DNA of 32,000 bases from Allobaculum fili (GCF_020969955.1 NZ_JAHDSX010000003.1:30001-62000); one strand, 5' to 3'; shown: positions 8,090 to 32,000, numbered from the stretch's first letter. The notes: generated from the letters alone by a model not told the origin. Program-made: numbers and translations.

Positions 8090-8344
8090 TTATTTCCGGT
8101 CAGATTCGCAGGACGTGATTGGAAACAGAAGCAGATGATCCTGATCGCAGATCGGCAGATCGCTCAGTCTCGTTTCCCCATCCACAAGTCCGTGTTCTTC
8201 TTCGAGATACCAGGCACTTTCCGCGCGCGAATAGCCTGAAAGAAAGGGCAGAAAATCGAGCAGATCGTTCAGCACCAGACAGGCTGGATTTGCTATTCGA
8301 AGAAGATACGTCTTTCGATCCGTCAGGGTCAGATGCAAAATCAT
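8090..8344 (-). CDS. YukD/EsaB-like ubiquitin-fold T7SS protein candidate (84 aa)
   Basis: The size matches EsaB/YukD (~80 aa). ATGA start/stop overlap with the essC-like gene. Alternating beta-like N-terminus ILHLTLTDRKTYLLRI and ...DGETRLSDLPICDQDHLLLF. Assignment rests on size and context, not a strong motif. Confidence 0.5.
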   Translation of the reverse strand: MILHLTLTDRKTYLLRIANPACLVLNDLLDFLPFLSGYSRAESAWYLEEEHGLVDGETRLSDLPICDQDHLLLFPITSCESDRK

Positions 8345-11300
8345 GGCTCGTCCAGTGCGGCGGTCTGCACATCGAAAACCTGTCCGTCTTCGATCCAGAG
8401 CGCATTGCCTTCACACGGATACGGCAGGCGAAGGCCCAGACTGTACATCCATTCGTTTTCCGGGTGCCCAAACAGGAGCACAGTTCCCTGCCTCGTTTTT
8501 TCCTGAAGAACGGCCTGGATCTGGACAGAATCCGCCCGGCTTAAATCCAGACATTCAAAATTCGTTCCGTTTGAAGCGGATCCGTTTTGTTCAAATGGAA
8601 CCGCCGTCGGATTTTGCATGTACAGTCTTCGCTGCAAACAACGGGCGGCTTTCCCCATTGCCGGCGTCAGGATAATCAGAGTCGTTTTTTGCCCTCGATA
8701 AAACAAAGGGGATCGACTGGAAAGATCGATAGCCATGAACAGATCACCCGGTTCTTCTTCAATCTCGTCAGCTTTCAGTCGCAGGCGGCATTCGGGCAGG
8801 CGATAAAACCAGGGCCGAATGGTCTGCTGCGCCCTTTTCTGACCGAGAATCAGCCGCTTCTTTTCGCCTTGGATCCTCGCAATCGCTTCGTTTTCCTTAA
8901 CCTGACCCGGTACGCTGGTTCCCAGAAAGAGAGCGCGCATTTCCCGATCGGCCAGATCGAAAAGAATGCGACAGTCGAGTGTGCCGATAAAGGAAGACCG
9001 CGCATAAGGGACGGTCGTAAAGACCAGAATCAGAGTGATGGCCGCTTTTTGCGGCAGCCGATCGATCTGACGTATAGCGGATTCAAAGCCGGCGGGATCA
9101 TCAAGGACGAAAATCGCAGGACCAATCTCTTCCGGCAGGGCGTCCAGGCATTCCGGCGCAATGACTTGATCGACCCCTTCAAAATTCAGGGTGGAATAAA
9201 CCGCTCTTTCTTCCTTCGATACCAGGAGCGATAAAGCGTGTCGAAGTGTCTTTTCTTTTCCAGCCATGGCCATCGGTCCGCACGGCAGTCGAAACGGAAT
9301 CGTTCGATGGATTTCATCGATGAGAATCTGATCTGAGTGTTCTTTCTCTTCGAGCGGATCGGGACAGAGAATCCATTCATGGGGCAGTCCCCTGGCGGCA
9401 ATCGTCTCGCCGATCTGATCCTGCAGGCTTCTTCTTGGCTGCAAAGCCCACAGGCCGTTTTCATCGAGATATTCGACGGAACTTTTCTGATCCGCCGGCG
9501 CCTTGAGATAAAAGACGCGCCCGCGCTTTTCTGCACTTCCCTGCACTTGAAGAATGAACTCTCCCGGCTGCTTTAAATGCACCGCCCCGTCATGCCCGAG
9601 CACTTCCCTGGAATCTCCGGAATCCAGAACGGAAAAACAGAGGCGGCTTCTGGAATTGGCCCAGATCTGCTCGTCCACCAGACCGGCCGGTTTCTGTGTG
9701 GAAAGAATCAGATGGACGCCGAGGCTTCTTCCAATTCGTGCCGTTTCCTGCAGCGATTTCATGAACTCTGGACAGCGGGCTTTCAGCTGACCAAATTCAT
9801 CCACGCAGATGAACAGATGGCTGAAAGGAAATGGCGCCGTTTCTGTTCCTGCCGCCTGCTGCTGTATCTGTTCTGCAATGACTTTCTGGCGCCGGTTCAG
9901 CTCATTTTCTAGAGCCTTTTCCATACGTTCAATCGAGGCCGCCTGAAGATTGGTCATCAACCCGGCGGTATGCGGCAGCGCCAGAAGCGGTCCGCCAAAC
10001 GCGCCGCCTTTAAAGTCGATCAAAATGAACTGAACCCGAGAGGGCGGATTTTGCCATGCCAGCAAATGCAGCAGGGTACTTAATCCTTCGCTTTTTCCGC
10101 TTCCCGTCGCTCCGGCAACGAGCGCGTGCGGGCCATCCTGAACCAGGTCCCAGAACACGCCTGGCGCCAGTTCAATGCGCAAATTCAGATTGCTCGAGCT
10201 CCAGAGCGGTTCGTTTACTGTGCTGGGAACCGGCAGACTGAACAAATCGGATGCCAGACCAAAGCCGCTCGCTCGCAGTTTCTGCCGTTTTTGCGTTCGA
10301 TCCAGCGACAGGCGAATCGGGGCCGTCTCCCCTTCGGGTTTTGAAAGAGACGTCTTGCAAGTACAAGGAAGAAATTCAATACATGCAGCATTTGCAGGAA
10401 GCTGGCTTGCAAAGAGTTTCTGGCGCGAACAGATCGTCCACTCCAAAGACGGATGAAGAGTGGCAAAACGAGAAAATGCCTGCACATGCGGAAAGCAGAG
10501 CGGTGTCTGTTCGAAAAAGCAGGCGGAATGAACCGGCATCTGCTCCAGAGAAAAACCGATCCACGCAAAACGCCGTCCGGAAGAATAGACCATATGGCAC
10601 CATATGAGAAAAAGATCAAGCAGGGCCGATTCGTCCAAATCCGAAAGCGTGATCGTCCTGCCTGGTTCCAGAAAAGACCAGGATGGTGCGCTGAAGCACA
10701 TCTCTTCCAGTCGATGGACGGCTTCGAGGGCTTTGGGATTTTCGGTCTGCCAGCTGATTTTCGGCTTTCGAAGCGTGATGCACGAGGAAAACTGAACGCC
10801 GGCGGGAATGGCCCAGTCCTTTCGCAGACATCCATGACGAAGCGTGTCTTCGAGAAGACAGAGTGTTTTCGCTTCGCTTTGAAACGCGCTTGTTTTCTTT
10901 TGGCGCCGTTCTTCCATTTCGTTTGCTACCCGGTTTAAGTACGCCAGATAGCTTTCCTGCGTCTTCTGCGCTTTTCGAAAAATGTTCTGCTTTTGCTTGC
11001 GGCCCTGCCAGCCATACCATCCGCCAAATGCAGCTGCGCTCATTCCCGCCCCGACAAGAGATGCCCCCAGCGTTTTCCAGTCACCGGGATTGAGCAGTGC
11101 ACCGCTGAGTGCCGACACCAGCGAGCTGATCACCATCATTCCGGCGGGAGAGGGCATGCGCGTATATTCGTCGGATTCATCCCGAACGAACGCTTCCAGT
11201 TCAAATTCCGCCGGTTTCTCCGGAGATTGAAAGGCATACGGCACAATTTCCTTTTCCCCCGAGGGTGCATCTCGTTTGTGTACGTTGGCCATTTCTCGAC

Positions 11301-11808
11301 TGGGGCCATCGGAAAAAGCCGGAGGAGCCAGCAGCAGTCGATTCCAGAACATAAACAGAGCACCTGCCGCAAAAATCCAGTCGCCTCGATTTAAGAGACA
11401 GGATTTTTCAACGCGCTGACCATTCACATACGTTCCGTTGCAGGAAAAATCTTCCAGTTTCCAGAGACCGGGCGAATCCGCTCCAAAGGCCGTCTCAACC
11501 GGCTCTGAAGAGATCTCTCCATCATCCTCCGTACGGCCTGCGAGCTCGATTCGAAAATGGAGCGGCGAAGCGTAGGGGAAATCTGCGGAGGCCGTGAACG
11601 CAAAACCTTCCGGATCCAAATCGAGCGCCATAAAGCGCGTATTCACCCGACACAGGTAACCGCCAGACCAGGGATGGAATTCGTGAACAGCTAAAAGGGG
11701 GGCCTCCATAGTAGAGTCTGTCTTCTCGTCTGTCTTGGCCGCTTCGAAGAGAACGGCCCGTTCTGGCTCAACGAAGAGAAGCGTTCCGCAATCGTCTGCG
11801 TTTTCCAT
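8341..11808 (-). CDS. essC: FtsK/SpoIIIE-family T7SS ATPase, EssC-like, short form (~1155 aa)
   Basis: N-terminal FHA-like region (..SCNGTYVNGQRVEKSCLLNRGDWIFAAGALFMF). Two TM helices (MMVISSLVSALSGALL, LGASLVGAGMSAAAFGGWYGW). Canonical Walker A GATGSGKS (nt 10090-10113) and Walker B HLFICVDEFGQL. Two further degenerate P-loop-like regions (AMAGKEKT, PAMGKAAR). Start is uncertain: TTG 11826 (ORF track), ATG 11808 or ATG 11709. None has a good RBS. Confidence 0.85.
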   Translation of the reverse strand: MENADDCGTLLFVEPERAVLFEAAKTDEKTDSTMEAPLLAVHEFHPWSGGYLCRVNTRFMALDLDPEGFAFTASADFPYASPLHFRIELAGRTEDDGEISSEPVETAFGADSPGLWKLEDFSCNGTYVNGQRVEKSCLLNRGDWIFAAGALFMFWNRLLLAPPAFSDGPSREMANVHKRDAPSGEKEIVPYAFQSPEKPAEFELEAFVRDESDEYTRMPSPAGMMVISSLVSALSGALLNPGDWKTLGASLVGAGMSAAAFGGWYGWQGRKQKQNIFRKAQKTQESYLAYLNRVANEMEERRQKKTSAFQSEAKTLCLLEDTLRHGCLRKDWAIPAGVQFSSCITLRKPKISWQTENPKALEAVHRLEEMCFSAPSWSFLEPGRTITLSDLDESALLDLFLIWCHMVYSSGRRFAWIGFSLEQMPVHSACFFEQTPLCFPHVQAFSRFATLHPSLEWTICSRQKLFASQLPANAACIEFLPCTCKTSLSKPEGETAPIRLSLDRTQKRQKLRASGFGLASDLFSLPVPSTVNEPLWSSSNLNLRIELAPGVFWDLVQDGPHALVAGATGSGKSEGLSTLLHLLAWQNPPSRVQFILIDFKGGAFGGPLLALPHTAGLMTNLQAASIERMEKALENELNRRQKVIAEQIQQQAAGTETAPFPFSHLFICVDEFGQLKARCPEFMKSLQETARIGRSLGVHLILSTQKPAGLVDEQIWANSRSRLCFSVLDSGDSREVLGHDGAVHLKQPGEFILQVQGSAEKRGRVFYLKAPADQKSSVEYLDENGLWALQPRRSLQDQIGETIAARGLPHEWILCPDPLEEKEHSDQILIDEIHRTIPFRLPCGPMAMAGKEKTLRHALSLLVSKEERAVYSTLNFEGVDQVIAPECLDALPEEIGPAIFVLDDPAGFESAIRQIDRLPQKAAITLILVFTTVPYARSSFIGTLDCRILFDLADREMRALFLGTSVPGQVKENEAIARIQGEKKRLILGQKRAQQTIRPWFYRLPECRLRLKADEIEEEPGDLFMAIDLSSRSPLFYRGQKTTLIILTPAMGKAARCLQRRLYMQNPTAVPFEQNGSASNGTNFECLDLSRADSVQIQAVLQEKTRQGTVLLFGHPENEWMYSLGLRLPYPCEGNALWIEDGQVFDVQTAALDEP

Positions 11809-13693
11809 CCGCAGCAAAGCCGCCAAGCAGTCCGCAGGCCAGAATCAGTCCTCCCATGGCCGATGCAGGTTTCACATGCAGGGTAAGCGTGTCGAGTTTC
11901 TGACCGTCTTTGAATACTTCGACCCTCTGATTTTTTCGAGCGCTGTACAGTTCGAGATACGGCTGCCCCAGCTCATCTTCCTTCAGTTTTGCGGGCTGCT
12001 CTTTTCCATCGATTTGAAGGGCATAGGAAGCCGAAGGATCATCCACATACAGGCGGAGCGCTTCGCAGGGCATAATGTCTGTTCCATCCGTTTGGACAAA
12101 CCCTCGGCAAAGCATAACTTCCTTGCGATGAAGCGCATCCCTGCGAATCATCCGGCCGTTTTCATCGAGGGAACAAAAGCGTTTTAAACGCAGCCCCGGC
12201 AGCTGGATCTGCTCCTGAAACATCTTCCCCGAATCGATGACGGTCCAGCTTTGATCCACCTTCTGCTGTCTGGCGTCCAGAAAAACCGCCTGAATCTGAA
12301 ACGCAGAATTCGATTCTGCATCAAACGCCTGTTCGAGCGATTCGTACGTTTTCTGGGTATCGAGCGACTGTACAGTAAATGCTTCAAGCGTCCCGTTTTG
12401 AACGTCGACTTTCAGATCCTGAGCGGAGGACGTAAAAATCAGCTCACCGGGTTTATACGCTTTTTCATTTCCTTTCAAAGCGGTCTGAAGAAGAGAATCC
12501 CCGTATTTGCGGCTGGAAGGGCGAAGGCTCTTTTCCGGATCCGCGCTGAGAACGGCTCCGGGATTTTGTCGTCCGGTCGGCGCAAAAGGCGAATACAGCA
12601 GCGGATCGTCGAGAAGCGATACGCTGGAAGAAGCGGAATTTGAATCCGTAAAAACCGAAGCGGTCAGCTCAGCGAATGGCCGATCCTGCATAAACGAAAA
12701 ACTAGCCGAAGAATTCCAGCTGGAATCAGAGAGAGGTGCGTCCTGATACGTGAAGGCATTCTCGACATTTAAAACGGATGGATCCGAAAGATCTGTGCCG
12801 TTCGTCTGCGGATTGGGCTGAGGCGTATCGGGATGTTCATACACCGCAAAATCCGAACTGTCGTTTCCTCCTTCCTCTGGCAAGTCATCCTCCAGAGAGC
12901 CGTCCTGAGAAGTATTTTCACTATAGGAAAAATCGGATTCGGGACGAGACAATTCACTGGCAGAAAATCCTCCAGCTGCCCAGGATACATCCAGCGGACT
13001 GAGCCGTTCGATTTCCGCTGGAGAATGGAACGACTCTGAATATCCGGTATCCGGCTCAGCATCCGGCTGCCCGTCCTTGTTTTCGAGGGAAGGACTATAG
13101 ACGCTCCATTCCAGTGCGGCACCCGTCGGTACATGGATCAGCCGAAGCCGGCTATGCGGATACTTCAGCGAGAAGCGAAACGAATCGCCCAGAGCGTACA
13201 CTTCTCGCCTTCCCTCTTCATCCTCGATTTCCAGAACGCATTGCCCAGTGTCGTCATTCAGTCTCAGACAAAGTTCGGTATCCGATAAAATCCGTTCGCC
13301 CGGCGTAGCAAAAGGCGCCTGAGGCATGGAAAGCGGCCAGTCGATACTCTCCGTTTCTTCCTGCAGTTGTCGCTGGCTGGCGGAAGACATGCGCTGAAGG
13401 CGTAAATACGGGCTGAGCAAGAAGGGACTGTCTTTGGACAGGGCGATTTCGCTGCTTTCCAGAATGTGTCCGTCTGAATCCTGCAATTCATAGGAAAGAA
13501 CATGAAATCCTTCATCGAGAAGAAGATCCAGATCGTGCAGACGCGAACCATCGAGACAGAAAATCGACCGGTGCCGGTCGACCTGCGGATAACAGACCAC
13601 CCGCGCCTCAGCGAATACTGAATTCGCAGGATTTTCTGGACTAAGACTGGCGCTGCAAGTCTGCATCACCGTTGTAACCACAGTCATATTCAT
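11768..13693 (-). CDS. 641-aa tail-anchored protein of unknown function, T7SS-locus specific
   Basis: RBS AAGGCAGGTGA. No N-terminal signal peptide. ~200-aa N-terminal domain, then a ~200-aa Ser/Asp/Glu/Pro-rich low-complexity region, then a ~200-aa beta-rich domain. Single C-terminal TM helix SAMGGLILACGLLGGFAA followed by DGKRRRLR. Its 3' end overlaps the essC-like start. Confidence 0.75.
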   Translation of the reverse strand: MNMTVVTTVMQTCSASLSPENPANSVFAEARVVCYPQVDRHRSIFCLDGSRLHDLDLLLDEGFHVLSYELQDSDGHILESSEIALSKDSPFLLSPYLRLQRMSSASQRQLQEETESIDWPLSMPQAPFATPGERILSDTELCLRLNDDTGQCVLEIEDEEGRREVYALGDSFRFSLKYPHSRLRLIHVPTGAALEWSVYSPSLENKDGQPDAEPDTGYSESFHSPAEIERLSPLDVSWAAGGFSASELSRPESDFSYSENTSQDGSLEDDLPEEGGNDSSDFAVYEHPDTPQPNPQTNGTDLSDPSVLNVENAFTYQDAPLSDSSWNSSASFSFMQDRPFAELTASVFTDSNSASSSVSLLDDPLLYSPFAPTGRQNPGAVLSADPEKSLRPSSRKYGDSLLQTALKGNEKAYKPGELIFTSSAQDLKVDVQNGTLEAFTVQSLDTQKTYESLEQAFDAESNSAFQIQAVFLDARQQKVDQSWTVIDSGKMFQEQIQLPGLRLKRFCSLDENGRMIRRDALHRKEVMLCRGFVQTDGTDIMPCEALRLYVDDPSASYALQIDGKEQPAKLKEDELGQPYLELYSARKNQRVEVFKDGQKLDTLTLHVKPASAMGGLILACGLLGGFAADGKRRRLRNASLR

Positions 13694-13732
13694 TCACCTG
13701 CCTTTTTACATGCCGTTGATGACGGCTGCGGT

Positions 13733-15289
13733 TCATCTATTCATACGAGCCTGAATTGTCGAGAGCGAAAATTTGAGACGGCTTTTGTTTTCTCGAAAAT
13801 CATTCCAGGCTGGAAAAGTCATCGGATAGTTTCCACAAAAACGAATTGTTTTTCTCATCTTCCTGGCGATCGGTTTCCAGAGCGGAATTCGTAACCAGAG
13901 GAAAATCGAAAAGAGATCCTCTTTCTGAATTTCCTCTATGGAAGCAGCATCGTCTGAATCTGCGCTTTGCCAGTGCAAATACAGTTTCCAGAGATCCGGG
14001 GCGCGTTTGGCCAGAGCGTTCTGCATCGTTTCGTTTAAAGAAAGGGTCTGTCCGTTCTGCCGTTTTCCAATCAGCATGTACACGAGCGAACGCGCACACT
14101 CTCCGCTCATCTGTTCAGGAGTTTCGATCTCTGCCAGAAGGCGTTCGAGCCGATCTGGAGCGACCGCATCCGGCGTAAGGGCGACCATCTGCGCCATAAG
14201 CTCAAGCGGTTCCTGCCATCCGCTCTGGTCTGGGAGTTCTTCGAGCAGATCGTCCAGCTGCTTCTGCGGGATCAGGCCATACACTAAAAGCTCCAGCATC
14301 GCCTTTGAAAAGCGGATCGAATAGTTCGTATCGTCTGGCAGATGATCCATACAGAAGCCGGCCAGACTGCGATGTTCTTCGCGCAAAGCCGCTTTGGCCG
14401 CCACACTCCACTCCGCCGGGCTCAGTTTGCGCTGCGGGTTTTCTTCCAGAAGTCTGGCATACTGGGCGCACAAAACCGAGGCTTCGGGAAGTCCGTTCGA
14501 CGAGTCGAGCGCATACGCCAGCCGCTCATTTTCGCCTGCCTGGGAAGACATTCCAATCGGCAGCACGAGCATCAATACCGAACAGCACGCGACCAGAAAA
14601 AGGGACAGGATCAGCAGCGCGCTTTTCTTTCGCGATTTCTTAACGGCCTTTTTCATGGCCTTCAACGACGAGAATCGCCGTCTCGGATCGGTACTCAGTG
14701 CTGTCCACGCAATGAGCGAAGGTCCAAACATATGCAGATACAGACGGCCCAACCCGATCTGATCCGCTCGCTCATCCATGCGTGCACCGTCCGCGCCTTC
14801 AGGCGGCAGCGCGTCTTTATTGACGAAGACCGGACGCGTGCTCCCGATCGGCAGACAGGCATTGAAATCGATCAGTACGGCATGTCCGTTGTGGACCAGG
14901 ACGTTGTCGCCTTTCAAATCGAGATACAGATATCCGGCCTGATGCACCTGTTCGATCAGCGCAAGAATTTGAAGGAAGATTTCTTTTTTCGCCTTTCGCG
15001 AGGGGCGTTCGTGCAGCCATTCCTCTAACGAACAGCCCTCAAACCAGGTTTCCACCAGCGTGTGGGCATACAAATCGGATCCATACTCCACTAAAGAAGG
15101 AGTCCACATCGAATCGAGCTTTTCCAGAACGTCTTTTTCCCGTCGCAAAGCGTCCAGAACAACGGAGGGCGCATCGATCGGAACGCTTTTGCGCACGGCT
15201 TTCTTTTGGGAGAGCGGATGCATTACCAGATCGGTCTGGCCATGCGGCGTCTGCTTGAGCGTTTCGATCCAGATCCAGGATTCACTCAT
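13733..15289 (-). CDS. Single-pass membrane protein with N-terminal Hanks-type protein-kinase-like domain (EssB/YukC-like topology), 518 aa
   Basis: Kinase-like motifs: AVRK (beta3 Lys), catalytic loop YLDLKGDN (nt 14903-14920), DFN in place of DFG, PPE in place of APE. The Gly-rich loop is degenerate. TM ALLILSLFLVACCSVLMLVLPIG at residues ~224-246. ~270-aa helical extracytoplasmic domain. 8-nt overlap (ATGAGTGA) with the upstream FHA gene. Confidence 0.75.
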   Translation of the reverse strand: MSESWIWIETLKQTPHGQTDLVMHPLSQKKAVRKSVPIDAPSVVLDALRREKDVLEKLDSMWTPSLVEYGSDLYAHTLVETWFEGCSLEEWLHERPSRKAKKEIFLQILALIEQVHQAGYLYLDLKGDNVLVHNGHAVLIDFNACLPIGSTRPVFVNKDALPPEGADGARMDERADQIGLGRLYLHMFGPSLIAWTALSTDPRRRFSSLKAMKKAVKKSRKKSALLILSLFLVACCSVLMLVLPIGMSSQAGENERLAYALDSSNGLPEASVLCAQYARLLEENPQRKLSPAEWSVAAKAALREEHRSLAGFCMDHLPDDTNYSIRFSKAMLELLVYGLIPQKQLDDLLEELPDQSGWQEPLELMAQMVALTPDAVAPDRLERLLAEIETPEQMSGECARSLVYMLIGKRQNGQTLSLNETMQNALAKRAPDLWKLYLHWQSADSDDAASIEEIQKEDLFSIFLWLRIPLWKPIARKMRKTIRFCGNYPMTFPAWNDFRENKSRLKFSLSTIQARMNR

Positions 15290-23123: not shown

Positions 23124-24227
23124 TCAGAATTCGGCAGTTCCATCGTCCGCCCGATTCAGCATAAGCACATCGTGGTGGTATTTCTTTAAAAACTCGATCC
23201 GTTCCGTTTCCGTTTCAAAAACGAAAATACGGCCGGTTTTATAGTTGCTTTTTGGATGATGATAGTCCGCCGCGTCCTGAAATGTCCCGCGGATGAAAAT
23301 CGGGCGGTTTCCAGATTCTTTATCCAGAATGGTAAATCGATGAATTCCATCTTTTTTCCCTGGTTCGATCTCCATGTCCCCGAAAACGCCTTTGGTGGAT
23401 TTTGAAGCCGAAAAGATTCCGACCAGTTCCCGGTCCTGACAAAGATACGTTCCCTGCCACCGGGTAATATCCCACTGGCTGAGTTCAATCGTTCCATCCG
23501 CTGGGTTATAGCTTACCTTATGATTTTCCGCATTGGCAATGATCTCTCCCGGCTGCTCCCCTCGTAAAAAAGTAACCGTTCCCAGTCGGAGATATCCCTT
23601 CGCCACTTCGCTCATATGGACCTGATAGTAAGGGCGTCCAAATTCAAGCTCATAATAACTGTCCACAGGCATTCCCCGGATCCAGCCGCTCACCTGACTG
23701 GTATTGCGATTGACAAAGTTGCGGCAGCTTCGGATCAGCTTGTACGGATCGGTTGCCGGCACAGGCGAATGAATGGAACAGACGAACTTCAGCTGATCGC
23801 GGATATCGTTCACGGACTGGTGAGGATCGAGAGCCTGAAGTTCTTCAACCGGCATGTCCGCGTTTTGCAAATACAGATCTCTGGCCCGCACCAGCTCCGG
23901 TGTCAGGCCTACCCAGACTTTAATGCCCTTGTTTGTGGACGTTTTAACGGTCTGGCAGTATTCGTATTCTTTCTGGGTCCAGCTTTTTCCTGTATCGTCG
24001 CGGGATCCATACCGCAGCGAAAGAATCATGAGAAAAAAGTCGGAACTCTCAATCATTCTCCGGATATCCGCAAAGCCCTCATCCGCATCCACCGCAAAAT
24101 GTTCCATCGCAAACGGGAATACGCTGTAGTCAATCAGTTCATCGAGAATGCTTTTGCGAATATCTTCAAGATCGCTGGTGGAAGACAGAAAGGCTGTATA
24201 GATCGACTCGCGGTTATTCATGCTCAT
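23124..24227 (-). CDS. DUF4062 (TIR-like fold) N-terminal domain protein with an unknown beta-rich C-terminal domain (367 aa)
   Basis: RBS AAGGAGGG. The N-terminus AFLSSTSDLEDIRKSILDELIDY..FPFAMEHF.......IRRMIESSDFFLMILSLRYGS....GKSWTQKEYEY matches my recollection of the DUF4062 pattern (F.SST..DL..ER......l...G..p..mE.F.........C...i..cD.yi.i.g.RYG......SyTe.Eye.A). I did not recognise the C-terminal ~200 aa. Confidence 0.65.
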   Translation of the reverse strand: MSMNNRESIYTAFLSSTSDLEDIRKSILDELIDYSVFPFAMEHFAVDADEGFADIRRMIESSDFFLMILSLRYGSRDDTGKSWTQKEYEYCQTVKTSTNKGIKVWVGLTPELVRARDLYLQNADMPVEELQALDPHQSVNDIRDQLKFVCSIHSPVPATDPYKLIRSCRNFVNRNTSQVSGWIRGMPVDSYYELEFGRPYYQVHMSEVAKGYLRLGTVTFLRGEQPGEIIANAENHKVSYNPADGTIELSQWDITRWQGTYLCQDRELVGIFSASKSTKGVFGDMEIEPGKKDGIHRFTILDKESGNRPIFIRGTFQDAADYHHPKSNYKTGRIFVFETETERIEFLKKYHHDVLMLNRADDGTAEF

Positions 24228-24325: not shown

Positions 24326-26917
24326 CTACTTTCGTGTTGTGTATCTGGAATTGCCTTCCATCACAGCCTGACGCGTCCTTTCTTTCAGTTTTTCAAAGGC
24401 AAGCTGGCGGCCTGGGCTGGATGGGACCGGATCCTTGAGGAAGAACCGGCCAATTTTCTGACAGAGCGTAACGTCGAAACAGGGCAGGTCATTTACCTTA
24501 TAGTCCTTTTCCGGATACTGGCTTAACGTCGGACGATTTCCCTGTTCATCCTGTAGCGGATTGGCTTGCAGGGTTGCTTCACTCACCTCATCGAGACGGT
24601 CCGCTTCCAGACTCATTCCATACTCCTCGCGCAGAAAGAAAGGCAGGGACAGTTCTGGAGTCGTTTCCACTAAGCAGACGTGCCGCATGAGATGGCCGTC
24701 TTTGGACTGATTTTTAAACTGGTCGATCTCGTTTCGTTCGATCACGGGCATGTACGAATAGCCTGATACGCGGGTGGCGGCATTCCATCGCCGCTTTTCC
24801 ATCCACGTCAGATCCGAAATCACCGATGGAATTTCAAAATAGCCTGGATCCACGTCCTGGACGCTCTCGATCCGGCTGAAGGCGTTCATATTCCGGGCTG
24901 GACTGGATGAGGCTAAAGAACAGGAATCGTTCAAAGTGCCTGGCTCGATCACCGCCGACTGAATCAGCCCCAGATCAAAGAGCTTGTATTCCGCATGGGA
25001 TGCTCTCGACCAGTTCGACCAGTTGCCGTAATCTTTTTTCAAAAAATTCGGGGCTCCCTTTTTCTTCGCTTTTTTGGAGGCGGAAGAAGTGGTCCGCTTG
25101 CGGTGTCGAGTTTCGGCCGGTTTCTCCTCGGCATAGCCATGAATCACGTCGTAGCGGAAATTGGATTCCACGGACGTTTCGAGAATGCTCATCTGCAGCG
25201 CCGCTTCGAGGCTGAAGCGCGCCTGATCAAATCCATAAGGAATGACAATGGGCACGTATCGTTCGGTGGAACCCAGAGCTTCTTCTTCGATTCCATTTTC
25301 CGGGGTTTGCAAAGTCAGCGGCAGCGGTGTCTGCATAGAAGGAAGCAGCGCCGAGTTCTGAAGGATCGGTACGACGAGCTGCCTGCCGATTCGTCTGGAA
25401 TCATAGTTTCTCTGGGTCAGGAAAAGTTTCATTCTTTGCGCCATTTCCATATTTTCCGTCTGAGCGTCCTGAGCGAGAACGATATAATCCGCTCGAAGTG
25501 CCTCCTCCATCAGTCGTCTCATGTCTTCGCTCTCATCCAGACTCAGAAAATTCAGTCTGGCATAAGGGGAATTTCTTCGATTTCGCTGTGCGGATAAGAC
25601 GGGATCCGGGCAGAGCAGATCTTCGTTTTCCAGACAGGAGAGCATGAGTTCCGGATAATTCAGATGAAGTTCCTTTTCCATGCTCGACTGCGAAGGATTC
25701 ATGACCGTAACGGACAGACGGTGATTTTTCATCTGTCCTAAAACGATGGAGTGCAGAACAATGGATTTCGCCGCGGATGAAGATCCACAGACCAGCAGTT
25801 TCAATTCTCCGCTCTCGGATTCAGGCTTCTCAATCAGAGGAAGAAAGAGCGGGAGATCGCGCAGAAGATTGAATCCCATTGTCATATAGTCTTTTATTCC
25901 GTTCACCTCGAGAACCCGATCCCCGTTCTGGGCGGAGAGGTTCAGAAGATGATCAATGCGCTCCATCCATACCGGATCGTCAATGTAAATATTGACCAGC
26001 GTGCTCTCTGTGGGAAACGGAGCTTTGAGCAGCGGCTGCCGGCCAAGGGAGCGATTGAGATAATCGTGCTGAAGAACGCTCCATATTCCGGCTTTCTGGG
26101 AGCCGCTGTATTTTGTGAAGTTGGACAGAATTTCGTAGTTTTCCATGGTGTCGCCCATCAAGTAATACACCACCCGGGAAGACTTCTGCAGATGAAGAAG
26201 GCGCGGATCGGATTTCACACAGATCGCCTGAATGCTTTTCGCGCGTTCCACGAGTTCCATATTGGCTTCCGAATCACTGGTCATGTACGTGTCTGTAAAA
26301 ATCAGCAGCGGCCGCTTGCAGCTCGAAGGAAGCGGGTCATTCAAATCCAGACCGTACAGCGCACGCAGTGTCTTTTCATCCCCGCGGGCAAGGCGTCTGT
26401 GGATATCCTCCGCCATTAAAATGGTTGCCTCGCTCAGCGACGTAAACACAATTTTCGGTCGGAAGGGGTGCCCCATAATTTTCAGCACCGGGAAAAGAAT
26501 ATCCAGAGCGGTCACGACCGAACTCAGCCCGCAAATGGGAGCCGCCACATTCAATACGGCGGTCAGATCCAGCAGGATGGGCTTGATCCATGCCCAGGCT
26601 GGATAGGGACCGGACTGAATCCACCAGTCAATCGCCTGCTCTTCCATCGCAAGAAACTGACCGTAATCCGCATCAAGAGAGACAGTCTGCAGCGTATTGA
26701 TTATGGACATGGATACGTTTTCCAGTCCATTTGCATCCTGCGCGATTGCCGGACTAGGGCTGCTCAGTACAAACAGGTTTAAAAGGAAAACCGTGATGAG
26801 AATCCCGCCTGTGAACACGAAAATTCGATGAAATCGAAACTGCGTACCAAAGGCGAAAACCAGCATAAGAATAAAAATGATCAGTATCGAACCAGCCAGC
26901 ACAAGCAGACTTTGCAT
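24326..26917 (-). CDS. 863-aa membrane protein of unknown function (N-terminal TM helices, Rossmann-like central regions, degenerate RyR-like C-terminal motif)
   Basis: I prefer the ATG at 26917 (GAGGAG 7 nt upstream) over the ORF-track TTG at 26989, which has no RBS. TM helices LLVLAGSILIIFILMLVFAF and IFVFTGGILITVFLLNLFVL, plus 1-2 more. LKLLVCGSSSAAKSIVLHSIVLG resembles a dinucleotide-binding beta-alpha-beta start. LTWMEKRRWNAATRVSGYSYMP...HLMRHVCLVETTPEL loosely resembles the bacterial RyR-domain pattern (HE.W.....GW.YG....HP.LVPY.EL). The domain calls are low confidence. Confidence 0.7.
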   Translation of the reverse strand: MQSLLVLAGSILIIFILMLVFAFGTQFRFHRIFVFTGGILITVFLLNLFVLSSPSPAIAQDANGLENVSMSIINTLQTVSLDADYGQFLAMEEQAIDWWIQSGPYPAWAWIKPILLDLTAVLNVAAPICGLSSVVTALDILFPVLKIMGHPFRPKIVFTSLSEATILMAEDIHRRLARGDEKTLRALYGLDLNDPLPSSCKRPLLIFTDTYMTSDSEANMELVERAKSIQAICVKSDPRLLHLQKSSRVVYYLMGDTMENYEILSNFTKYSGSQKAGIWSVLQHDYLNRSLGRQPLLKAPFPTESTLVNIYIDDPVWMERIDHLLNLSAQNGDRVLEVNGIKDYMTMGFNLLRDLPLFLPLIEKPESESGELKLLVCGSSSAAKSIVLHSIVLGQMKNHRLSVTVMNPSQSSMEKELHLNYPELMLSCLENEDLLCPDPVLSAQRNRRNSPYARLNFLSLDESEDMRRLMEEALRADYIVLAQDAQTENMEMAQRMKLFLTQRNYDSRRIGRQLVVPILQNSALLPSMQTPLPLTLQTPENGIEEEALGSTERYVPIVIPYGFDQARFSLEAALQMSILETSVESNFRYDVIHGYAEEKPAETRHRKRTTSSASKKAKKKGAPNFLKKDYGNWSNWSRASHAEYKLFDLGLIQSAVIEPGTLNDSCSLASSSPARNMNAFSRIESVQDVDPGYFEIPSVISDLTWMEKRRWNAATRVSGYSYMPVIERNEIDQFKNQSKDGHLMRHVCLVETTPELSLPFFLREEYGMSLEADRLDEVSEATLQANPLQDEQGNRPTLSQYPEKDYKVNDLPCFDVTLCQKIGRFFLKDPVPSSPGRQLAFEKLKERTRQAVMEGNSRYTTRK

Positions 26918-27036
26918 ATTCTTTCTCCTCTTCCTGTTTTTGGAATAAATCGAGTTCCAGTATTCTTTCAGTTTACGGAGAATATTCAAAATGCGGATGC
27001 GGTTTATTATTTTCGTTGCATTTTAATCCTCTTCCG

Positions 27037-27076
27037 TAAAAAAGCGTCCCTCATTTTCTGAATGAAGGACGCTTTT
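27037..27076 (-). terminator. Rho-independent terminator after the 1538-aa gene
   Basis: Stem aaagcgtccctcatt / aatgaaggacgcttt (~14 bp, one mismatch), loop ttctg. On the minus strand it is followed by TTTTTTAC. It lies ~140 nt downstream of the stop at 27213 and separates this gene from the 863-aa gene. Confidence 0.8.
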
Positions 27077-27212
27077 CAAAAGGCAAAATGTACAGACTGT
27101 TCCCTCCTGAACGTTCATGCAGGTACGGTTCTATTGAACGGCGCACCCGTTTGAAGCGTTGGGATTTTTTTCTGGAATTGAAAGCAGACGGGCTGAATCC
27201 ATTCGATCCCGG

Positions 27213-30200
27213 TTACTGTTCGACCGCTTCTTCTTCGCTTGCATACGGAATGGGCGGGAGCGTATTGAACGGTGTCTTGCTTGTACCGAGCATCGAATCC
27301 TGCTGAATCGGATAGTTGGCGAGGTACAGGCGCATACCGATTCCATACTCATTGTCTTCCAGTTCACGGTTGCGCATATACCGTATGGCGCGTTCGATCT
27401 CGCCCATCGCGACATAGTACTGGACTTCTGTCCAGACAGCCATGCCTTCATGCAGAAGCAGGTTCGTCTCCTGGTTGTCATACCCTGGTCCTACGTTCTC
27501 GGAGTTCCAGTGCTCAAACTGCCAGGCATGGGTCATTTCATGCACAATCGTCGATTTCACATTCCAGAGCGGAGAACCATTTTCCACATAGATCACTGTC
27601 TTTCCCTTTCGCGGCGAAGCGTAGCCTACACAGCGGGGATCCATTTCCGGCGTCGGCTTGAAGTCGGTCAGGTGCTTGTTCACCTTGCGGGCGTTCACCA
27701 TATGGAATTCCAGTTTTGTTCGGAAGGTAATGTTAAAGATTTTCTCCAGTTCCGCATGCGTTTCATTGACTACACGCTTGAACTGAATCTTATTGCGTAC
27801 AGCAGTGGCCGAGCATTCCGGGCATCGCTCGCGGCCGTCTTTGAGCGTATCGTAATGACCTGGAGTAAGCTGCTGACCGCAGAAATCACAGTAATGGATA
27901 CCCGGCATGCGCGGATCATACGTCGATCCGGAATCAAAATGCGCTTTGGCGGTACGGGCATCGTGAAGACTGCTTTCTTCGAAATGCATGCCTCGCAGGT
28001 ATTCGAGCGTCGCGTCGAGCGCAAGCCAGTCTGGTACTTCCTGGGCGCCGTACTGAAGATACGGAAGAATAACAAACGGGGACTGGATTTCATCCTCTTC
28101 TTCCAGCTCTTCATCTTCCGCGAAGATCGCTGCTGGATTGGAAGGTCCTTTTACCGGTTCGGATATGGGCTGTCTGCCAGGTTCGGGTTTCGAACCGCCG
28201 CCCGTTTCCTGCGAGCCGTTTTCTTCGGGGGCGTTTTCCTCAGAATCCTCGTCCTTGCGGCCGCGTCCAAACCAGCCTCTGCGTTTTTTCTTCCGGCGGC
28301 CTTTTCCTTCTTTCGGATCCGGAGCCTTGGCCGGTTCGGGTTCTGGTTCCGGTGTAGGCGCCGGGTTCGGTTCGGGTTCTGGAGCAGCAGGCGGTTCGTG
28401 TGTTTCTACAGAAGACGTACCCGAAGACGGGTTTGCCGCTCCTTCTGGGTTTGCCTCAGTCTGCGGTGTCGGTTCGGCTTCACCAGAAACGTTTTCAGAA
28501 GCGGATGCTTTCTGCTCTTTTGAAGCAGCAGGCTGATCCGCCTGGGAAGCCTTCTCGGTCTGAACGTCAGCCGGATCGGCTGCCGGTGATGGATTCTCAG
28601 CTGGAGCAGGTGTTTGTTCGGATGAATTTGAAGAGTCTGCGCTCTCAGAAGAATTCGCTTCGTCTTTTTTCCGTCGGCCAAATCCAAAGAGCGGCATCAC
28701 GGAATAGAGCGTCGGACTGGAATCCGAAGGCCGGCTGGCCATGGATCGCAGCGATTTTTGCGAAGGCAGATAATTCTGCACCTGCGTTTCGTTCGAACCG
28801 TCTTCATCACTGACGTCGTGTGCAGCGTCTTCGCCTTCTCTGTGCGTGGTCGATGGACCTTTGGAATTCCATACGAGATAGTCAGCAATGATTTCCATAA
28901 TTCTCTGCAGATTTCTTTCTACTGTCACAAGCAGACCGAGATCGATATGAGAATCTTCCACAATATAAATCGCGTTCTTCTCCATATCTTCCTCTTCAAA
29001 AGCGACACAGGCAGAAGCCGCCCGGTTTCGATCGCGGTAAAGCGGATCGTTTAAGACGGCTTCCGGAATCTGTCCAGGAAGCGCAATCAGATATCCGGTC
29101 TCGTTTGGAAACAGAGTTCGGAAAACTTCGTTAAGCAGAACGGCAACGGTGTAGACCACTTCCGGTTTCACGTTTTCCAGCGTGATCTGCAAAAATTCCT
29201 TCTGATACAGGCGGCGAACATGGGCCGGTTTGAGCCGAACGTGCGAGGCGTGTTCAAAATCGTTGGGCGAAGGCAGATCCAGATAGCCATCGGTCCGGAC
29301 TTCAATATTCGCAAAGCCATGACGGATGACCATATCCCGGAAATGATTTTCTCCTGGCTGCATCTCGACACCGGAAATCTTATAGTCGCGCAGCTGACGG
29401 TAATACACGCGCCGCATGAAGTGATCTCCGGAACGGCGAACGATAATTTCGCTGTCATTGGAAATCGAAACGACCTGATAGTAACGGCCGTCCCACGAAA
29501 AGAACTGTCCAGGCAGCAGGACCTGATAAATCTGGCCGAGCAGCCGGTTGCCCATCGGATATTCCTTCGTTTTTTCGTTTTCAATGACGAAGTAAACCGA
29601 ACGCAGGGCGGAGTCGTATACCGAATGGAGCTGGTCGAGGTTAATGCTGTACTGGAAGCGGGTGGCCTGAATGTCCGCCCGATAGGCATTGACCTGCGTC
29701 GTGTGAATCTTGAATTTTTCCTGTCCGGTATGCTTATGGATCAGATGCTGAAGGACGTCATATGTTTTTCTGGAATGAATGCCATGGATGGCCAGCTGAT
29801 TGCTGATATAGCTTTCGTCTACCGGTTCCATGCTCATCAGCATGAGCAGCCGGATAATGAAGTTGCGCTCCGTTCGGGCGTAATCCGGAACAATCGTCGG
29901 GATCGCTTTGGAGTCAACTGTCATCATTTCGGCATTGGCCGTCATGTAATCGCGAAGCATGTAGTTTTCCGAAAGAATATTGACGAAGCCTTTCTTTTCC
30001 AGACGCGAGCTGAACAGGCGGGCGATGTCAAATGCGTTTCGAAACTCATCTTCCACGATCAGATAGCCTTTTTCCATTTCCGGCACCTGCCAGAGATGGC
30101 TTTCATAATGCATGCGCTCTTCCAGCTGGTTCTGTTCCAGACGGGTGTGCGTATATTCACAGAAACTTGGGTAATACTGCGAAACGTTCCAGCGAATATC

Positions 30201-31829
30201 GGCAATCGGCGATTTAGAAGAACTGAACCAGTAAATCTCATCTGCCCCATTCGCCAGACCTTCAAGGGCGATTTCCGTACCGACGCCAAGATAGCGGGAA
30301 ATTCCAGGAACAATGCGGTTCTGCATGCCAGGGCCGTCCACATGCCAGATCGCCCGGCAAGTGCCGGCTTCGCTGGCAGGCGGAGCAAGGACTTCAACAA
30401 GCGGCTGATGGACGAGATGGCTCAGGGCGTCGACCAGACCGTCCACACTGCGGTCGAGCGCGCAGTAAGTGAGCGGATCGCCCGAAGATTCACAGATTTC
30501 CAAAATGTTTCGCAGACCGATCTGACCTGTTCCTAAAAGATTGGAAGGTTCCAGAAGCAGAACGAACTGTACCTCTTTGAGGAAGCCGATATTGTTGTGA
30601 ATGAACGTGTGGTTATAAATGTTGTGGAACGTAATGATGCCGACGCTGATGTCGTCGCTTCTTCCCTTCTCACTGAGCTCCTCCGTCATCCACAGCTTTT
30701 TCAGGTTGGTCGTTTCCAGAAATCCGTCGGTAATCCATTCCTTGATATCCTGTGCGTCCGTACTTCGGCCGCAGATCACGAGAACCTTTTTATTTTTAAG
30801 GAGCGTGGCAATCATCGGAAGCATGAGGTAATACGTGAAGTCTCTATAAAAGGGATTCATTACGACCAGACTTTCACGGTTAAGCAGCTGTCTTGCCGCC
30901 TTCTGATAGTCCGGCTGCAGAGGAATTCCGATATCCAGCAGGGAGTTGAAATACGCAGAAGCCAGTTCATCGATTTCTGTGTTTTCGAGAGCATCTTCCT
31001 GATAGAGTCCGGTGACTTTTGCCACCGTTTTTCTTTTCTGATGATCATCGAAGCAAAGCCGGTCTCGGAACATTTTTTTAAGAGACGCACGGATCGTATC
31101 GCATTCCGCGCTGTTTTCTTCTTCGGCCAGAATTTTTCCTTCGTTTTTCTCAGGCTGCCAGCCGTTTAAAAAGGCGAAGCATTCTCCAAGAATCAGGATT
31201 CCGGCAACCGGCGTCATCATTGCGGGAATGTTCGATCCCCCAATGCCGGAATACACATACTGGGTAATGAGATAAATGAAATAGCAGAAGAAGACTGCCG
31301 CCATGATCAGAACCCGCAGATTGTAGTACCGCGGCTTGAGCACGTAGCGTTCCTGCGGATTGGTGTACTGCCGCAGGGCTCTTTCATCTTTCTCGTAAAA
31401 TTCGCCAGAAGTCAGATCAAACAGATAGGCATGGTTTTCCCAGAGGCTGACCAGTTTTCGAAACGTCAGTTTCTTGACGAGCAGCCAGAACAGAGCCAGC
31501 AAAATGTTGGACCAGACAAAGGCCCCCAGACCCGTCAGAATCGTGCCGGCCAGCCAGGCAAAGAACGCATAGAGATAGCGGCCAAGCAGAGGAATCTGGC
31601 CAACTAGATTCGCGATCCAGATCAGAATGTCGTACAGAAACTGAAGAACGGCATCGTTGTTGAACATGCCAAGGCACACAACAAGCAGACAGAGGAACGG
31701 AACAGCGAACTGATAGCAGCGCTTTTTCGGTTTTTCATGAATCAGAAACGGCGTCATGATGAAAAAGAACTGAAAGGCGAACAGAACCCAGAACAGGATA
31801 AAGGAGATAAATGCGTGGATATAATTCAT
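27213..31829 (-). CDS. 1538-aa multidomain membrane protein with C-terminal Zn-ribbon and DA1-like HExxH metallopeptidase
   Basis: RBS CAGGAGGA. Residues 1-225 hold ~7 TM helices. Residues 330-985 form a large alpha/beta region with helicase-like strand-helix patterns (KKVLVICGRSTDAQDIKEWI; VQFVLLLEPSNLL) but no Walker A. Residues ~988-1249 are a Pro/Glu/Ser-rich low-complexity linker (PEPEPNPAPTPEPEPEP, RRKKKRRGWFGRGRK). Zn-ribbon CDFCGQQL-x14-CPEC is at nt 27813-27890. HEMTH is at nt 27528-27542, followed by LHEGMAVW, which matches the DA1-like peptidase pattern (HEMMHAW...EEGICQV). Confidence 0.85.
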   Translation of the reverse strand: MNYIHAFISFILFWVLFAFQFFFIMTPFLIHEKPKKRCYQFAVPFLCLLVVCLGMFNNDAVLQFLYDILIWIANLVGQIPLLGRYLYAFFAWLAGTILTGLGAFVWSNILLALFWLLVKKLTFRKLVSLWENHAYLFDLTSGEFYEKDERALRQYTNPQERYVLKPRYYNLRVLIMAAVFFCYFIYLITQYVYSGIGGSNIPAMMTPVAGILILGECFAFLNGWQPEKNEGKILAEEENSAECDTIRASLKKMFRDRLCFDDHQKRKTVAKVTGLYQEDALENTEIDELASAYFNSLLDIGIPLQPDYQKAARQLLNRESLVVMNPFYRDFTYYLMLPMIATLLKNKKVLVICGRSTDAQDIKEWITDGFLETTNLKKLWMTEELSEKGRSDDISVGIITFHNIYNHTFIHNNIGFLKEVQFVLLLEPSNLLGTGQIGLRNILEICESSGDPLTYCALDRSVDGLVDALSHLVHQPLVEVLAPPASEAGTCRAIWHVDGPGMQNRIVPGISRYLGVGTEIALEGLANGADEIYWFSSSKSPIADIRWNVSQYYPSFCEYTHTRLEQNQLEERMHYESHLWQVPEMEKGYLIVEDEFRNAFDIARLFSSRLEKKGFVNILSENYMLRDYMTANAEMMTVDSKAIPTIVPDYARTERNFIIRLLMLMSMEPVDESYISNQLAIHGIHSRKTYDVLQHLIHKHTGQEKFKIHTTQVNAYRADIQATRFQYSINLDQLHSVYDSALRSVYFVIENEKTKEYPMGNRLLGQIYQVLLPGQFFSWDGRYYQVVSISNDSEIIVRRSGDHFMRRVYYRQLRDYKISGVEMQPGENHFRDMVIRHGFANIEVRTDGYLDLPSPNDFEHASHVRLKPAHVRRLYQKEFLQITLENVKPEVVYTVAVLLNEVFRTLFPNETGYLIALPGQIPEAVLNDPLYRDRNRAASACVAFEEEDMEKNAIYIVEDSHIDLGLLVTVERNLQRIMEIIADYLVWNSKGPSTTHREGEDAAHDVSDEDGSNETQVQNYLPSQKSLRSMASRPSDSSPTLYSVMPLFGFGRRKKDEANSSESADSSNSSEQTPAPAENPSPAADPADVQTEKASQADQPAASKEQKASASENVSGEAEPTPQTEANPEGAANPSSGTSSVETHEPPAAPEPEPNPAPTPEPEPEPAKAPDPKEGKGRRKKKRRGWFGRGRKDEDSEENAPEENGSQETGGGSKPEPGRQPISEPVKGPSNPAAIFAEDEELEEEDEIQSPFVILPYLQYGAQEVPDWLALDATLEYLRGMHFEESSLHDARTAKAHFDSGSTYDPRMPGIHYCDFCGQQLTPGHYDTLKDGRERCPECSATAVRNKIQFKRVVNETHAELEKIFNITFRTKLEFHMVNARKVNKHLTDFKPTPEMDPRCVGYASPRKGKTVIYVENGSPLWNVKSTIVHEMTHAWQFEHWNSENVGPGYDNQETNLLLHEGMAVWTEVQYYVAMGEIERAIRYMRNRELEDNEYGIGMRLYLANYPIQQDSMLGTSKTPFNTLPPIPYASEEEAVEQ

Positions 31830-31833
31830 CGGT

Positions 31834-32000
31834 TTAATCCTCCTGATCCTTCAGGCCGCTTTTTTCTACGACCTTCATTTCATAAGGTTCCAGACGTTTT
31901 TTATCGATGCTCGTCACAAAGGGAAACGGCGAATGAATGACCGTTCCGTCCGGGAACGAGACAAAGACGGGATCTTCCGGTTCTTCCAGCAAATATGCCG
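31834..32000 (-). CDS. 3' end of an unidentified gene, translationally coupled to the 1538-aa gene (partial, 55 codons)
   Basis: My own minus-strand translation gives ...AYLLEEPEDPVFVSFPDGTVIHSPFPFVTSIDKKRLEPYEMKVVEKSGLKDQED*. The stop TAA at 31834-31836 lies inside the RBS region, 4 nt before the ATG at 31829. The frame stays open to the window edge. Confidence 0.6.
   Translation of the reverse strand, partial: AYLLEEPEDPVFVSFPDGTVIHSPFPFVTSIDKKRLEPYEMKVVEKSGLKDQED

Follow-up and report, generated by a model that had tools for sequence, protein, structure and literature searches.

In a window of 32,000 nucleotides from Allobaculum fili (GCF_020969955.1, NZ_JAHDSX010000003.1:30001-62000; "the window" denotes this whole stretch), we analyzed gene D, which lies on the minus strand at 27213..31829 and encodes 1538 aa from its ATG (stop codon 27213-27215). 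The protein joins a polytopic membrane anchor, a helicase-like core without the signatures of a motor, a disordered tether, a Zn ribbon and a putative zincin protease, and it belongs to a conserved cassette, A-B-C-D, that includes the tubulin-like protein FtsZl1. We tentatively read D, with a probability of about 0.45, as a subunit that combines a membrane-bound sensor or scaffold with a protease and serves a conflict or stress system based on tubulin. An original prediction for this DNA had proposed a 1538-aa open reading frame (ORF) in which transmembrane (TM) helices, core, linker, CxxC..CxxC ribbon and HExxH motif follow one another. That layout was found as described, and because 70 of the 77 homologous clusters repeat the same order, it lies far beyond chance. 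A cluster of 52 public sequences (P0001) was 99% identical to the D protein. The family alignment (77 sequences) divided the part behind the TM helices into residues 240-995, strongly conserved, residues 996-1245, poorly conserved, and residues 1246-1525, again conserved. Searching the full D protein against Pfam and NCBIfam returned sub-threshold zincin and ribbon matches only.

To place the core, residues 1-1001 of D were modeled with AlphaFold2 (AF2; 51 homologues; predicted local distance difference test score, pLDDT, 87.2), and the core model was compared with the PDB using Foldseek. The top match was Bacillus subtilis MrfA (6znp_A, E 1.2e-21), whose chain of 748 residues was aligned over 814 columns, and the match to 6zns reached a target-normalised TM-score of 0.65. 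The next matches, to Hel308, Pol-theta helicase, Brr2 and Lhr, started from about 4e-9 and covered about 530 columns. The published map of MrfA runs NTR (a 10-residue helix and a 7-residue strand), RecA1, RecA2, WH, OB barrel, CON and MZB; its CON is an elongated three-stranded antiparallel sheet and its MZB holds the 4-Cys DUF1998 site. The D model presented its elements in the same sequence (all features of D lie on the minus strand). An alpha-helix (residues 241-257) followed by a 7-residue beta-strand (258-264) at 31038..31109 probably corresponds to the MrfA NTR. Behind it come a RecA1-like domain without Walker A (residues 265-485; 30375..31037), a RecA2-like domain (residues 486-650; 29880..30374) with the invariant blocks VEDEF, NxxSExYxLRDYM and KAIPxxxPDYARTERN, and a part resembling WH, OB, CON and MZB in its modeled secondary structure (residues 654-989; 28863..29870). 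In this last part, helices at 654-701 were WH-like, five short strands at 744-799 suggested an OB-like barrel, three very long antiparallel strands of 15-23 residues each at 809-884 were CON-like, and residues 889-989 formed an alpha/beta end domain similar to MZB/DUF1998. Because the order of elements in the model equals the MrfA map, it points beyond an "SF2-like" (superfamily 2) region to the MrfA/YprA architecture; at the level of fold only, the core is modeled as an SF2 tandem RecA protein in the order NTR-RecA1-RecA2-WH-OB-CON-MZB. The original prediction of an SF2-helicase-like region without Walker A thus agrees with the fold match and with the family alignment. Its estimate of about 650 aa was too short: the conserved globular region is real, and it extends over about 750 aa (residues 240-995).

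The catalytic signatures of a helicase were missing from this core. At the motif I position within the RecA1-like domain, only G354-R355 (nt 30765-30770) stands between the first core strand, KVLVIC (348-353), and the next helix, with no GxxxxGK[ST]. The motif II position reads LEPS (426-429; nt 30543-30554), in which the Glu is retained and the Walker-B Asp is lost. "CGR" at motif I and "LEPS" at motif II were present throughout the 77 aligned sequences, and a Walker-A-like string occurred in 4 of the 77, never at the motif I position. Residues 889-995 held no conserved Cys, so that the DUF1998 4-Cys Zn site is missing in every relative read; loss of this site has also been reported for Dpd helicases. 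About 80 positions were nevertheless invariant across 14 diverse members, including the strings NPFYRD, CGR, LEPS..TGQIGL, DGLVDALSH, VEDEF, LRDYM and PDYARTERN. Such conservation despite the lost catalytic signatures argues that the core is under strong selection for a role other than ATP-driven translocation.

At the sequence level, the D protein gave no Pfam DEAD, Helicase_C or DUF1998 match at E<=1, and PDB sequence searches with the whole protein and with family profiles found no match for the core. A profile search of 1.84 billion representatives at full sensitivity yielded 790 relatives of D. Among the 150 of these that were listed, the module began at about residue 200-330 behind a membrane anchor or the protein appeared to be a truncated fragment, and none formed a bridge to active helicases. 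Compared with the MrfA/YprA helicases (MrfA; DrmA/DrmB, DpdJ, DruE, ARMADA), the D core therefore has the same fold and the same domain order but no sequence-level similarity in the PDB profile and Pfam searches, no Walker A, no Walker-B Asp and no 4-Cys Zn cluster, and its chain also includes a polytopic membrane anchor and a tethered zincin. As the fold and domain order agree with YprA while the Walker A/B motifs, the 4-Cys site and the sequence profiles do not, the core should be called a YprA-like pseudo-helicase and not a YprA helicase.

The C-terminal module (residues 1246-1538; 27216..28094) comprises a helical lead-in, a Zn ribbon and a minimal gluzincin. In the ribbon, C1314-x2-C1317-x18-C1336-x2-C1339 (27813..27890), all four Cys are invariant; the original prediction had located it correctly and had miscounted its spacer, which is 18 residues rather than the 14 of CxxC-x14-CxxC. 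The zincin active site (27447..27542) is formed by H1430-E1431-x-x-H1434 and E1461. As predicted, the HEMTH motif (residues 1430-1434) stands at nt 27528-27542, followed by HEGMAVW, which supplies E1461 as the third ligand, and the catalytic residues are invariant. The residues fixed across the family are H, E, H, W, Q and EGMA.W, which give the signature HExxHxWQ...EGMAxW. The AF2 model of the module (pLDDT 86.6) showed a short helical lead-in, the ribbon, a three-strand sheet, an HExxH helix and a Glu helix; its strands 127-133, 157-162 and 165-171 and its helices 176-195 (HExxH) and 208-229 (Glu), in the numbering of the model, had pLDDT >90. The top Foldseek matches were all zincins (3o0y, SPRTN 6mdw, M32, M61 and YbeY; best E 0.009), in line with the zincin fold on which the original prediction depended. 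As no match reached E<=0.001, the assignment rests on motif, topology and the consistency of the weak matches. Sub-threshold Pfam zincin matches were obtained in 19 of 19 diverse members scanned: DUF6782 in 19, BSP in 18, DUF6055 in 12, eCIS_core/DUF4157 in 7, DA1-like in 7 (best E 0.024), SprT-like in 6 and Peptidase_M1 in 5, with WLM also among the weak matches. DA1-like is one of some ten Pfam families matched below threshold. D shares with the minimal gluzincins (SprT/SPRTN, Wss1/WLM, DA1-like, DUF6782, BSP, DUF4157/eCIS_core) the HExxH motif with a Glu on the next helix, the small three-strand sheet, an adjacent Zn-binding element and these weak Pfam and fold matches. It differs from them in that no Pfam threshold was reached and in having three features of the D family only: HExxHxWQ...EGMAxW, the preceding CDFC-x18-CxxC ribbon and the helical lead-in. 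The module is a gluzincin of clan MA that belongs to no curated family, and its sequence predicts an active enzyme.

In Microbacteriaceae (Microbacterium P0161, P0163 and P0167), the ribbon and zincin are also encoded by themselves, in a gene of about 274 aa, and in Pseudolysinimonas a separate zincin gene (L067:12898-13734) adjoins a shortened D that lacks this module. The zincin module is therefore a functional unit. UniRef names one stand-alone copy "DUF4157 domain-containing protein".

The polytopic membrane anchor (residues 1-225; 31155..31829) contains 5-7 TM helices. Hydropathy and the AF2 model revealed five long hydrophobic helices, mostly with pLDDT >85, two of which are long enough to count double; of the roughly seven helices first proposed, five long ones were thus seen, and 5-7 is a fair count. 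Loops at residues 30-42 and 120-165 are rich in Lys and Arg, and those at 77-82 and 196-206 are uncharged, which predicts an N-out, C-in topology; under the positive-inside rule, this loop placement would put the remaining ~1300 aa of D in the cytoplasm. A weak CdvB/Vps2 match in the TM region (E 0.02-0.05, PDB sequence search) was treated as noise. The disordered tether between core and protease module (residues 996-1245; 28095..28844) is 250 aa long, close to the ~260-aa low-complexity linker of the original prediction, and contains 15% Glu, 14% Pro, 13% Ser and 12% Ala. Neither its sequence nor its length is well conserved, the latter ranging from 100 to 700 aa across the family.

Since the window is truncated just upstream of D, we read the upstream genes from a sister contig (L001). 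The upstream sequence, from which the original prediction proposed that the whole operon be defined, gave gene A (a 68-aa fragment plus 815 aa), gene B (1197 aa) and gene C (659 aa, two TM helices), followed by D. Gene B, two genes upstream of D, matched Pfam Tubulin_2 (E 1.4e-60). The order A>B>C>D was near-universal in 84 fetched loci, with C present in 77, B in 70 and A in 61, shortfalls that stem at least partly from loci cut upstream. Gene A encodes a signal anchor, a vWA domain with a metal-ion-dependent adhesion site (MIDAS), beta-rich repeats and a C-terminal TM helix; the MIDAS motif DxSGS was found in 60 of the 61 copies, and Pfam VWA matched one member with E 1.7e-4. The tubulin GTP loops are kept in gene B (GGTG[ST]G in 62 of 70 copies), and for this FtsZl1 protein neither a TM helix nor a signal peptide is predicted; it would thus share the cytoplasm with the C-terminal ~1300 aa of D. 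The profile of gene C had no match in the PDB.

This arrangement corresponds to the "vWA/FtsZl1 operon" listed by Makarova and Koonin (2010; Biol Direct 5:33, PMC2875224, Additional file 5), in which Ruminococcus lactaris RUMLAC_01529-01526 and Bacteroides/Pseudoflavonifractor capillosus BACCAP_04124-04121 are given as vWA, FtsZl1, B5 and B12. Their table labels the vWA gene COG2304, and they proposed a role in membrane remodelling. By order, size and description, gene D is family B12 and gene C is B5: FtsZl1 is a neighbour in one direction, a vWA membrane protein is present, and a large membrane protein with zincin and Zn finger comes after B5. The listed cassettes measure 732/1136/678/1418 and 861/1183/658/1435 aa, compared with 740-860/~1180/~660/1246-1538 aa here, and gene sizes in three Mediterraneibacter loci (L024, L028 and L043) match the 2010 list. 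That table has no central domain and mentions neither the pseudo-helicase and the tether nor partners of the TIR, transglutaminase-like and RyR kinds. The gene family was therefore catalogued in 2010, and its 750-aa core was not identified then. The original prediction had recognized no described system in this architecture, which does not hold as far as cataloguing goes: the cassette is in the 2010 list, and related ones appear in Kaur et al. 2020.

To assess its distribution, one genome per species was scanned, and relatives of D were detected in 351 of 185,579 species. Clostridia of the gut or rumen account for most hosts (Lachnospiraceae, Oscillospiraceae, Acutalibacteraceae, Faecalibacterium, Dorea, Faecalicatena, Mediterraneibacter), with stray matches in genomes labelled Actinobacteria, Treponema or Prevotella, of which some are metagenome-assembled. 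After D the loci diverge, so that a conserved core is followed by variable genes. TIR-like ORFs lay within 10 kb downstream in 21 of the 56 loci having enough sequence, and the TIR proteins had at least four architectures (TIR-LRR, TIR-HD, N-domain-TIR-propeller and TIR-DUF4190). A transglutaminase-like domain was present in 32 of 80 loci (tblastn), in many of them as a separate gene just downstream of D, and it was fused to the C-terminus of D in 8 of 217 family proteins checked, these fusions measuring ~1500-2050 aa. Most of the stand-alone transglutaminase-like proteins carry a signal anchor and an acidic or low-complexity spacer, and the signal anchors predict an extracytoplasmic location. 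Other neighbours were EssC-like FtsK/SpoIIIE ATPases, an RCK-type channel-like protein, and CitMHS and SulP-STAS transporters. With its conserved core, variable genes and TIR-like ORFs, this neighbourhood fits the conflict or signalling role that had been suggested from the window.

The conflict or stress reading draws on this core-plus-variable-effector pattern, on the enrichment in TIR genes, on the helicase family that D shares with DISARM, Dpd and Druantia, and on the systems of Kaur et al. The DUF4062, IMPase, transglutaminase-like and NUDIX genes of the window count towards it as well. YprA-type helicases stand at the core of DISARM, Dpd, Druantia and ARMADA, having been repeatedly recruited to defence. 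Kaur, Burroughs, Iyer and Aravind (2020; eLife 9:e52696) interpreted tubulin-containing GAP1-N2/DO-GTPase cassettes as conflict systems. Those cassettes, like the one described here, have a tubulin-like protein with a C-terminal helical/coiled-coil part and a membrane vWA protein facing outside; they too are membrane-proximal, have variable linked genes and occur in Firmicutes and Actinobacteria. Unlike them, the D cassette has no DO-GTPase, GAP1 or FNIII-repeat gene (Pfam and Walker-A searches), and the B5 protein and the dead-helicase-zincin protein take their place.

If D does serve a conflict or stress system, it would act as a non-motor clamp or receptor at the membrane, its dead helicase no longer translocating. 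The clamp might use an MrfA-type "canopy" movement of OB-CON-MZB, and its candidate ligands would be single-stranded DNA, another nucleic acid, a nucleotide, or one of its partners, for instance the FtsZl1 polymer. A cue could arrive from the envelope via the extracellular vWA protein and/or through GTP-dependent assembly of FtsZl1 at the membrane. The switch would then free or position the tethered zincin, which would cut a partner or pro-effector, with TIR proteins, the transglutaminase-like protein and FtsZl1 itself as candidate targets, and the output would be a conflict or stress response with NAD+-linked effectors. In a bolder form, which we consider unlikely, the cassette would be a hitherto unrecognized, cytoskeleton-based immune signalosome of gut Clostridia, with the helicase turned into a non-motor receptor that gates a zincin licensing TIR and transglutaminase-like effectors. 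There, a vWA sensor outside the cell and a polymer of the tubulin-like GTPase would assemble at the membrane, the receptor would bind invader nucleic acid or a nucleotide signal, and licensing would be proteolytic.

Several observations weigh against the conflict or stress reading. Plasmids and phages yielded no copy of the cassette (tblastn), no PADLOC model (PADLOC-DB v2) was matched by A, B, C, D or gene E, which follows D in the window, and the database names of all family members are "hypothetical protein". Most loci are without TIR genes, and the transporter and channel neighbours would fit a physiological role equally well. The strong terminator of the original prediction was seen as well, an intrinsic-terminator-like hairpin with a U-run 3' of D (27037..27076, minus strand; 23 bp); a simple terminator scanner missed it and folding confirmed it (dG -26.9 kcal/mol, z = -5.96 vs shuffles). 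It stands between D and the downstream genes, which gives no support to co-transcription. The identities of the dead-helicase ligand and the zincin substrate are guesses. In the sister contig, the vWA gene (L001:1096-3756) has a single in-frame stop after about codon 68, with the rest continuing in frame; the 68-aa ORF before it holds the signal anchor and the MIDAS motif VVYDDSGSM. The stop could reflect a pseudogene, recoding or an assembly error, and because of it the cassette may be decaying in this strain.

The same absence of PADLOC matches and of plasmid or phage copies would suit a housekeeping machine for membrane remodelling or cytoskeletal work, in which FtsZl1 filaments shape membranes or vesicles with no role in conflict. 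We regard this as somewhat unlikely, and its account of D, as an anchor or regulator of filaments whose protease trims filament or envelope components, deserves the same reserve. Every core protein but FtsZl1 is membrane-bound, the vWA domain is extracellular, and transporters and channels are found among the neighbours, all of which favour it, as does the membrane-remodelling argument of Makarova and Koonin (2010). The distribution argues otherwise, being patchy (351 of 185,579 species, scattered over Clostridia), as do the post-core genes, which vary by locus with strong TIR enrichment, and the helicase family of the core, whose other members come from DNA repair and defence.

That MrfA is a DNA-repair helicase raises a further alternative, in which D is a membrane DNA-handling device whose core binds and perhaps moves on DNA and whose Zn ribbon and zincin form a DNA-dependent protease similar to SprT, SPRTN or Wss1 that clears DNA of proteins. 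SPRTN (6mdw) was the third-best fold match of the module, SprT-like and WLM were among the weak Pfam matches, and FtsK/SpoIIIE ATPases stand directly after D in several loci, with one further downstream in the window. We judge this distinctly unlikely. No member has Walker A or the Walker-B Asp, so that no motor activity is expected; the SprT and WLM matches were weaker than those of several unrelated zincin families; and the cassette has no conserved nuclease, recombinase or conjugation gene. The setting could be DNA uptake, transfer or repair together with the FtsK/EssC-like ATPases, but these FtsK-type genes look EssC-like (secretion ATPases) and occur in few loci.

Those ATPases could instead suggest an accessory of type VII-like secretion or toxin delivery, in which the cassette serves export as a scaffold or regulator and the zincin processes secreted TIR and transglutaminase-like toxins. 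An EssC-like ATPase of 1525 aa adjoins D directly downstream in L007, L008, L009 and L081, the window contains FHA-FtsK, pseudokinase-like and FHA/DUF6382 genes, and the stand-alone transglutaminase-like partners bear signal anchors. This remains very unlikely, since EssC-like genes were found at only about 5 of 84 loci and Pfam called no export-type domain on the TIR partners, which carry LRR, beta-propeller or HD domains of the kind typical of intracellular sensors; no WXG100-type gene was seen, though none was searched for. Hardly credible is a strict bacterial DA1-family peptidase regulated like plant DA1, and the "DA1-like" label of the original prediction was too specific: despite the motif likeness HExxHxW ... 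E-G, the PF12315 matches (7 of 19 members) were below threshold, weaker than DUF6782, BSP, DUF6055 and M1 and absent at E<=1 for the window protein, about 200 family proteins with precomputed Pfam annotations have no PF12315 label, and in place of the N-terminal LIM and UIM domains of plant DA1, neither of which appeared in the Pfam scans, the Zn element is a single 4-Cys ribbon.

Within the tubulin/FtsZ superfamily, FtsZl1 is among the most divergent branches, and sixteen years after it was described, the literature searched held no function assigned to it by experiment. A literature search on tubulin, vWA, anti-phage and TIR turned up only a jumbo-phage review, and the text of a 2025 YprA survey mentions neither tubulin, FtsZ, transmembrane nor zincin. 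One widespread form of the FtsZl1 cassette is now seen to carry an inactivated helicase of the DISARM/Druantia/Dpd family, joined to a protease that appears active and to an anchor in the membrane, and located beside TIR genes, which extends the YprA family beyond the reach of sequence searches. The combination of a tubulin-like GTPase, a vWA protein, a dead DUF1998 helicase, a tethered zincin and TIR genes is unusual. If the proposed role is true, D would be the first dead DUF1998 helicase to serve as a receptor, and the FtsZl1 family would gain its first assigned function. Residues that could be mutated are E1431 of the zincin, the four ribbon Cys, the FtsZl1 GTP loop, and CGR, LEPS and DGLVDALSH, which we infer to lie at the cleft of the helicase-like core. 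Cultured hosts include Faecalicatena contorta, Dorea spp., Faecalibacterium sp. An122 and R. lactaris.

At the 5' side of D, the 3' end of gene C (31834..32000, minus strand) is truncated by the window edge. Its stop codon, TAA at 31834-31836, lies 4 nt ahead of the ATG of D, as had been predicted, and a Shine-Dalgarno sequence, AGGAGG (31839-31844, minus strand), is found 9 nt upstream of that ATG. Two antisense ORFs inside D, at 27159-28523(+) with 454 aa and 29220-30536(+) with 438 aa, were rejected as genes. Their composition is low-complexity or Arg-rich, and because they lie opposite the conserved coding region and the low-complexity linker, we consider them non-coding shadows. No tRNA was found in the window.

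Downstream of D, the window contains, in order, gene E, a DUF4062 gene, an inositol monophosphatase (IMPase) gene, a transglutaminase-like gene, an N-domain ORF, a 427-aa gene and a NUDIX gene. Gene E (24326..26989, minus strand; 887 aa) combines TM helices with a Rossmann-like GxGxxG region and an RyR domain at its C-terminus. Translation probably begins at the ATG at 26917, where a Shine-Dalgarno sequence is present, and not at the TTG at 26989. Gene E belongs, as a divergent member, to a family found after D in at least 26 loci. The cassette usually has such a gene behind D, and the family has 3-4 TM helices, a Rossmann-like region and RyR (profile against PDB RyR repeats, E 1.6e-14). The DUF4062 gene (23124..24227, minus strand; Pfam E 7.7e-17), whose domain we take to be TIR-like, is a probable variable or effector gene of the cassette, since other loci have TIR proteins at the corresponding position. 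It is paired with the IMPase-family gene (22339..23109, minus strand). A TIR and IMPase pair also flanks the cassette in L002 (L002:1-1776), so that the pairing occurs at two unrelated loci, and the IMPases of the window and L002 are 37% identical. A NUDIX gene lies nearby both in the window and in L003. The IMPase pairing and the NUDIX gene are hints of nucleotide-signal processing.

The transglutaminase-like gene of the window (20869..21969, minus strand; papain fold) encodes an N-terminal signal anchor. In five copies checked that are fused after the D zincin, no TM helix intervenes and a cytoplasmic location is predicted, whereas in L048, L051, L074 and P0199 a TM helix separates the transglutaminase-like domain from the D zincin domain. 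This difference in topology was noted for window 20869-21969(-), P0057, P0062, P0065, P0201 and P0211. The adjacent 184-aa ORF (20212..20766, minus strand) matched only the N-domain of the TIR-propeller family (residues 13-178), a family of about 1090-1260 aa with N-domain, TIR and beta-propeller that follows the cassette in Dorea, Faecalicatena and Mediterraneibacter loci. As its TIR and propeller are missing, the ORF is either a remnant or a stand-alone domain. A type VII secretion-like set occupies 8341-16859(-) of the window and comprises an FHA-FtsK/SpoIIIE protein of 1161 aa, a 641-aa gene, a protein-kinase-like protein of 518 aa and an FHA/DUF6382 protein of 525 aa. The ATPase domain of the EssC-like neighbour of D is 41% identical to the FtsK/SpoIIIE of the window.

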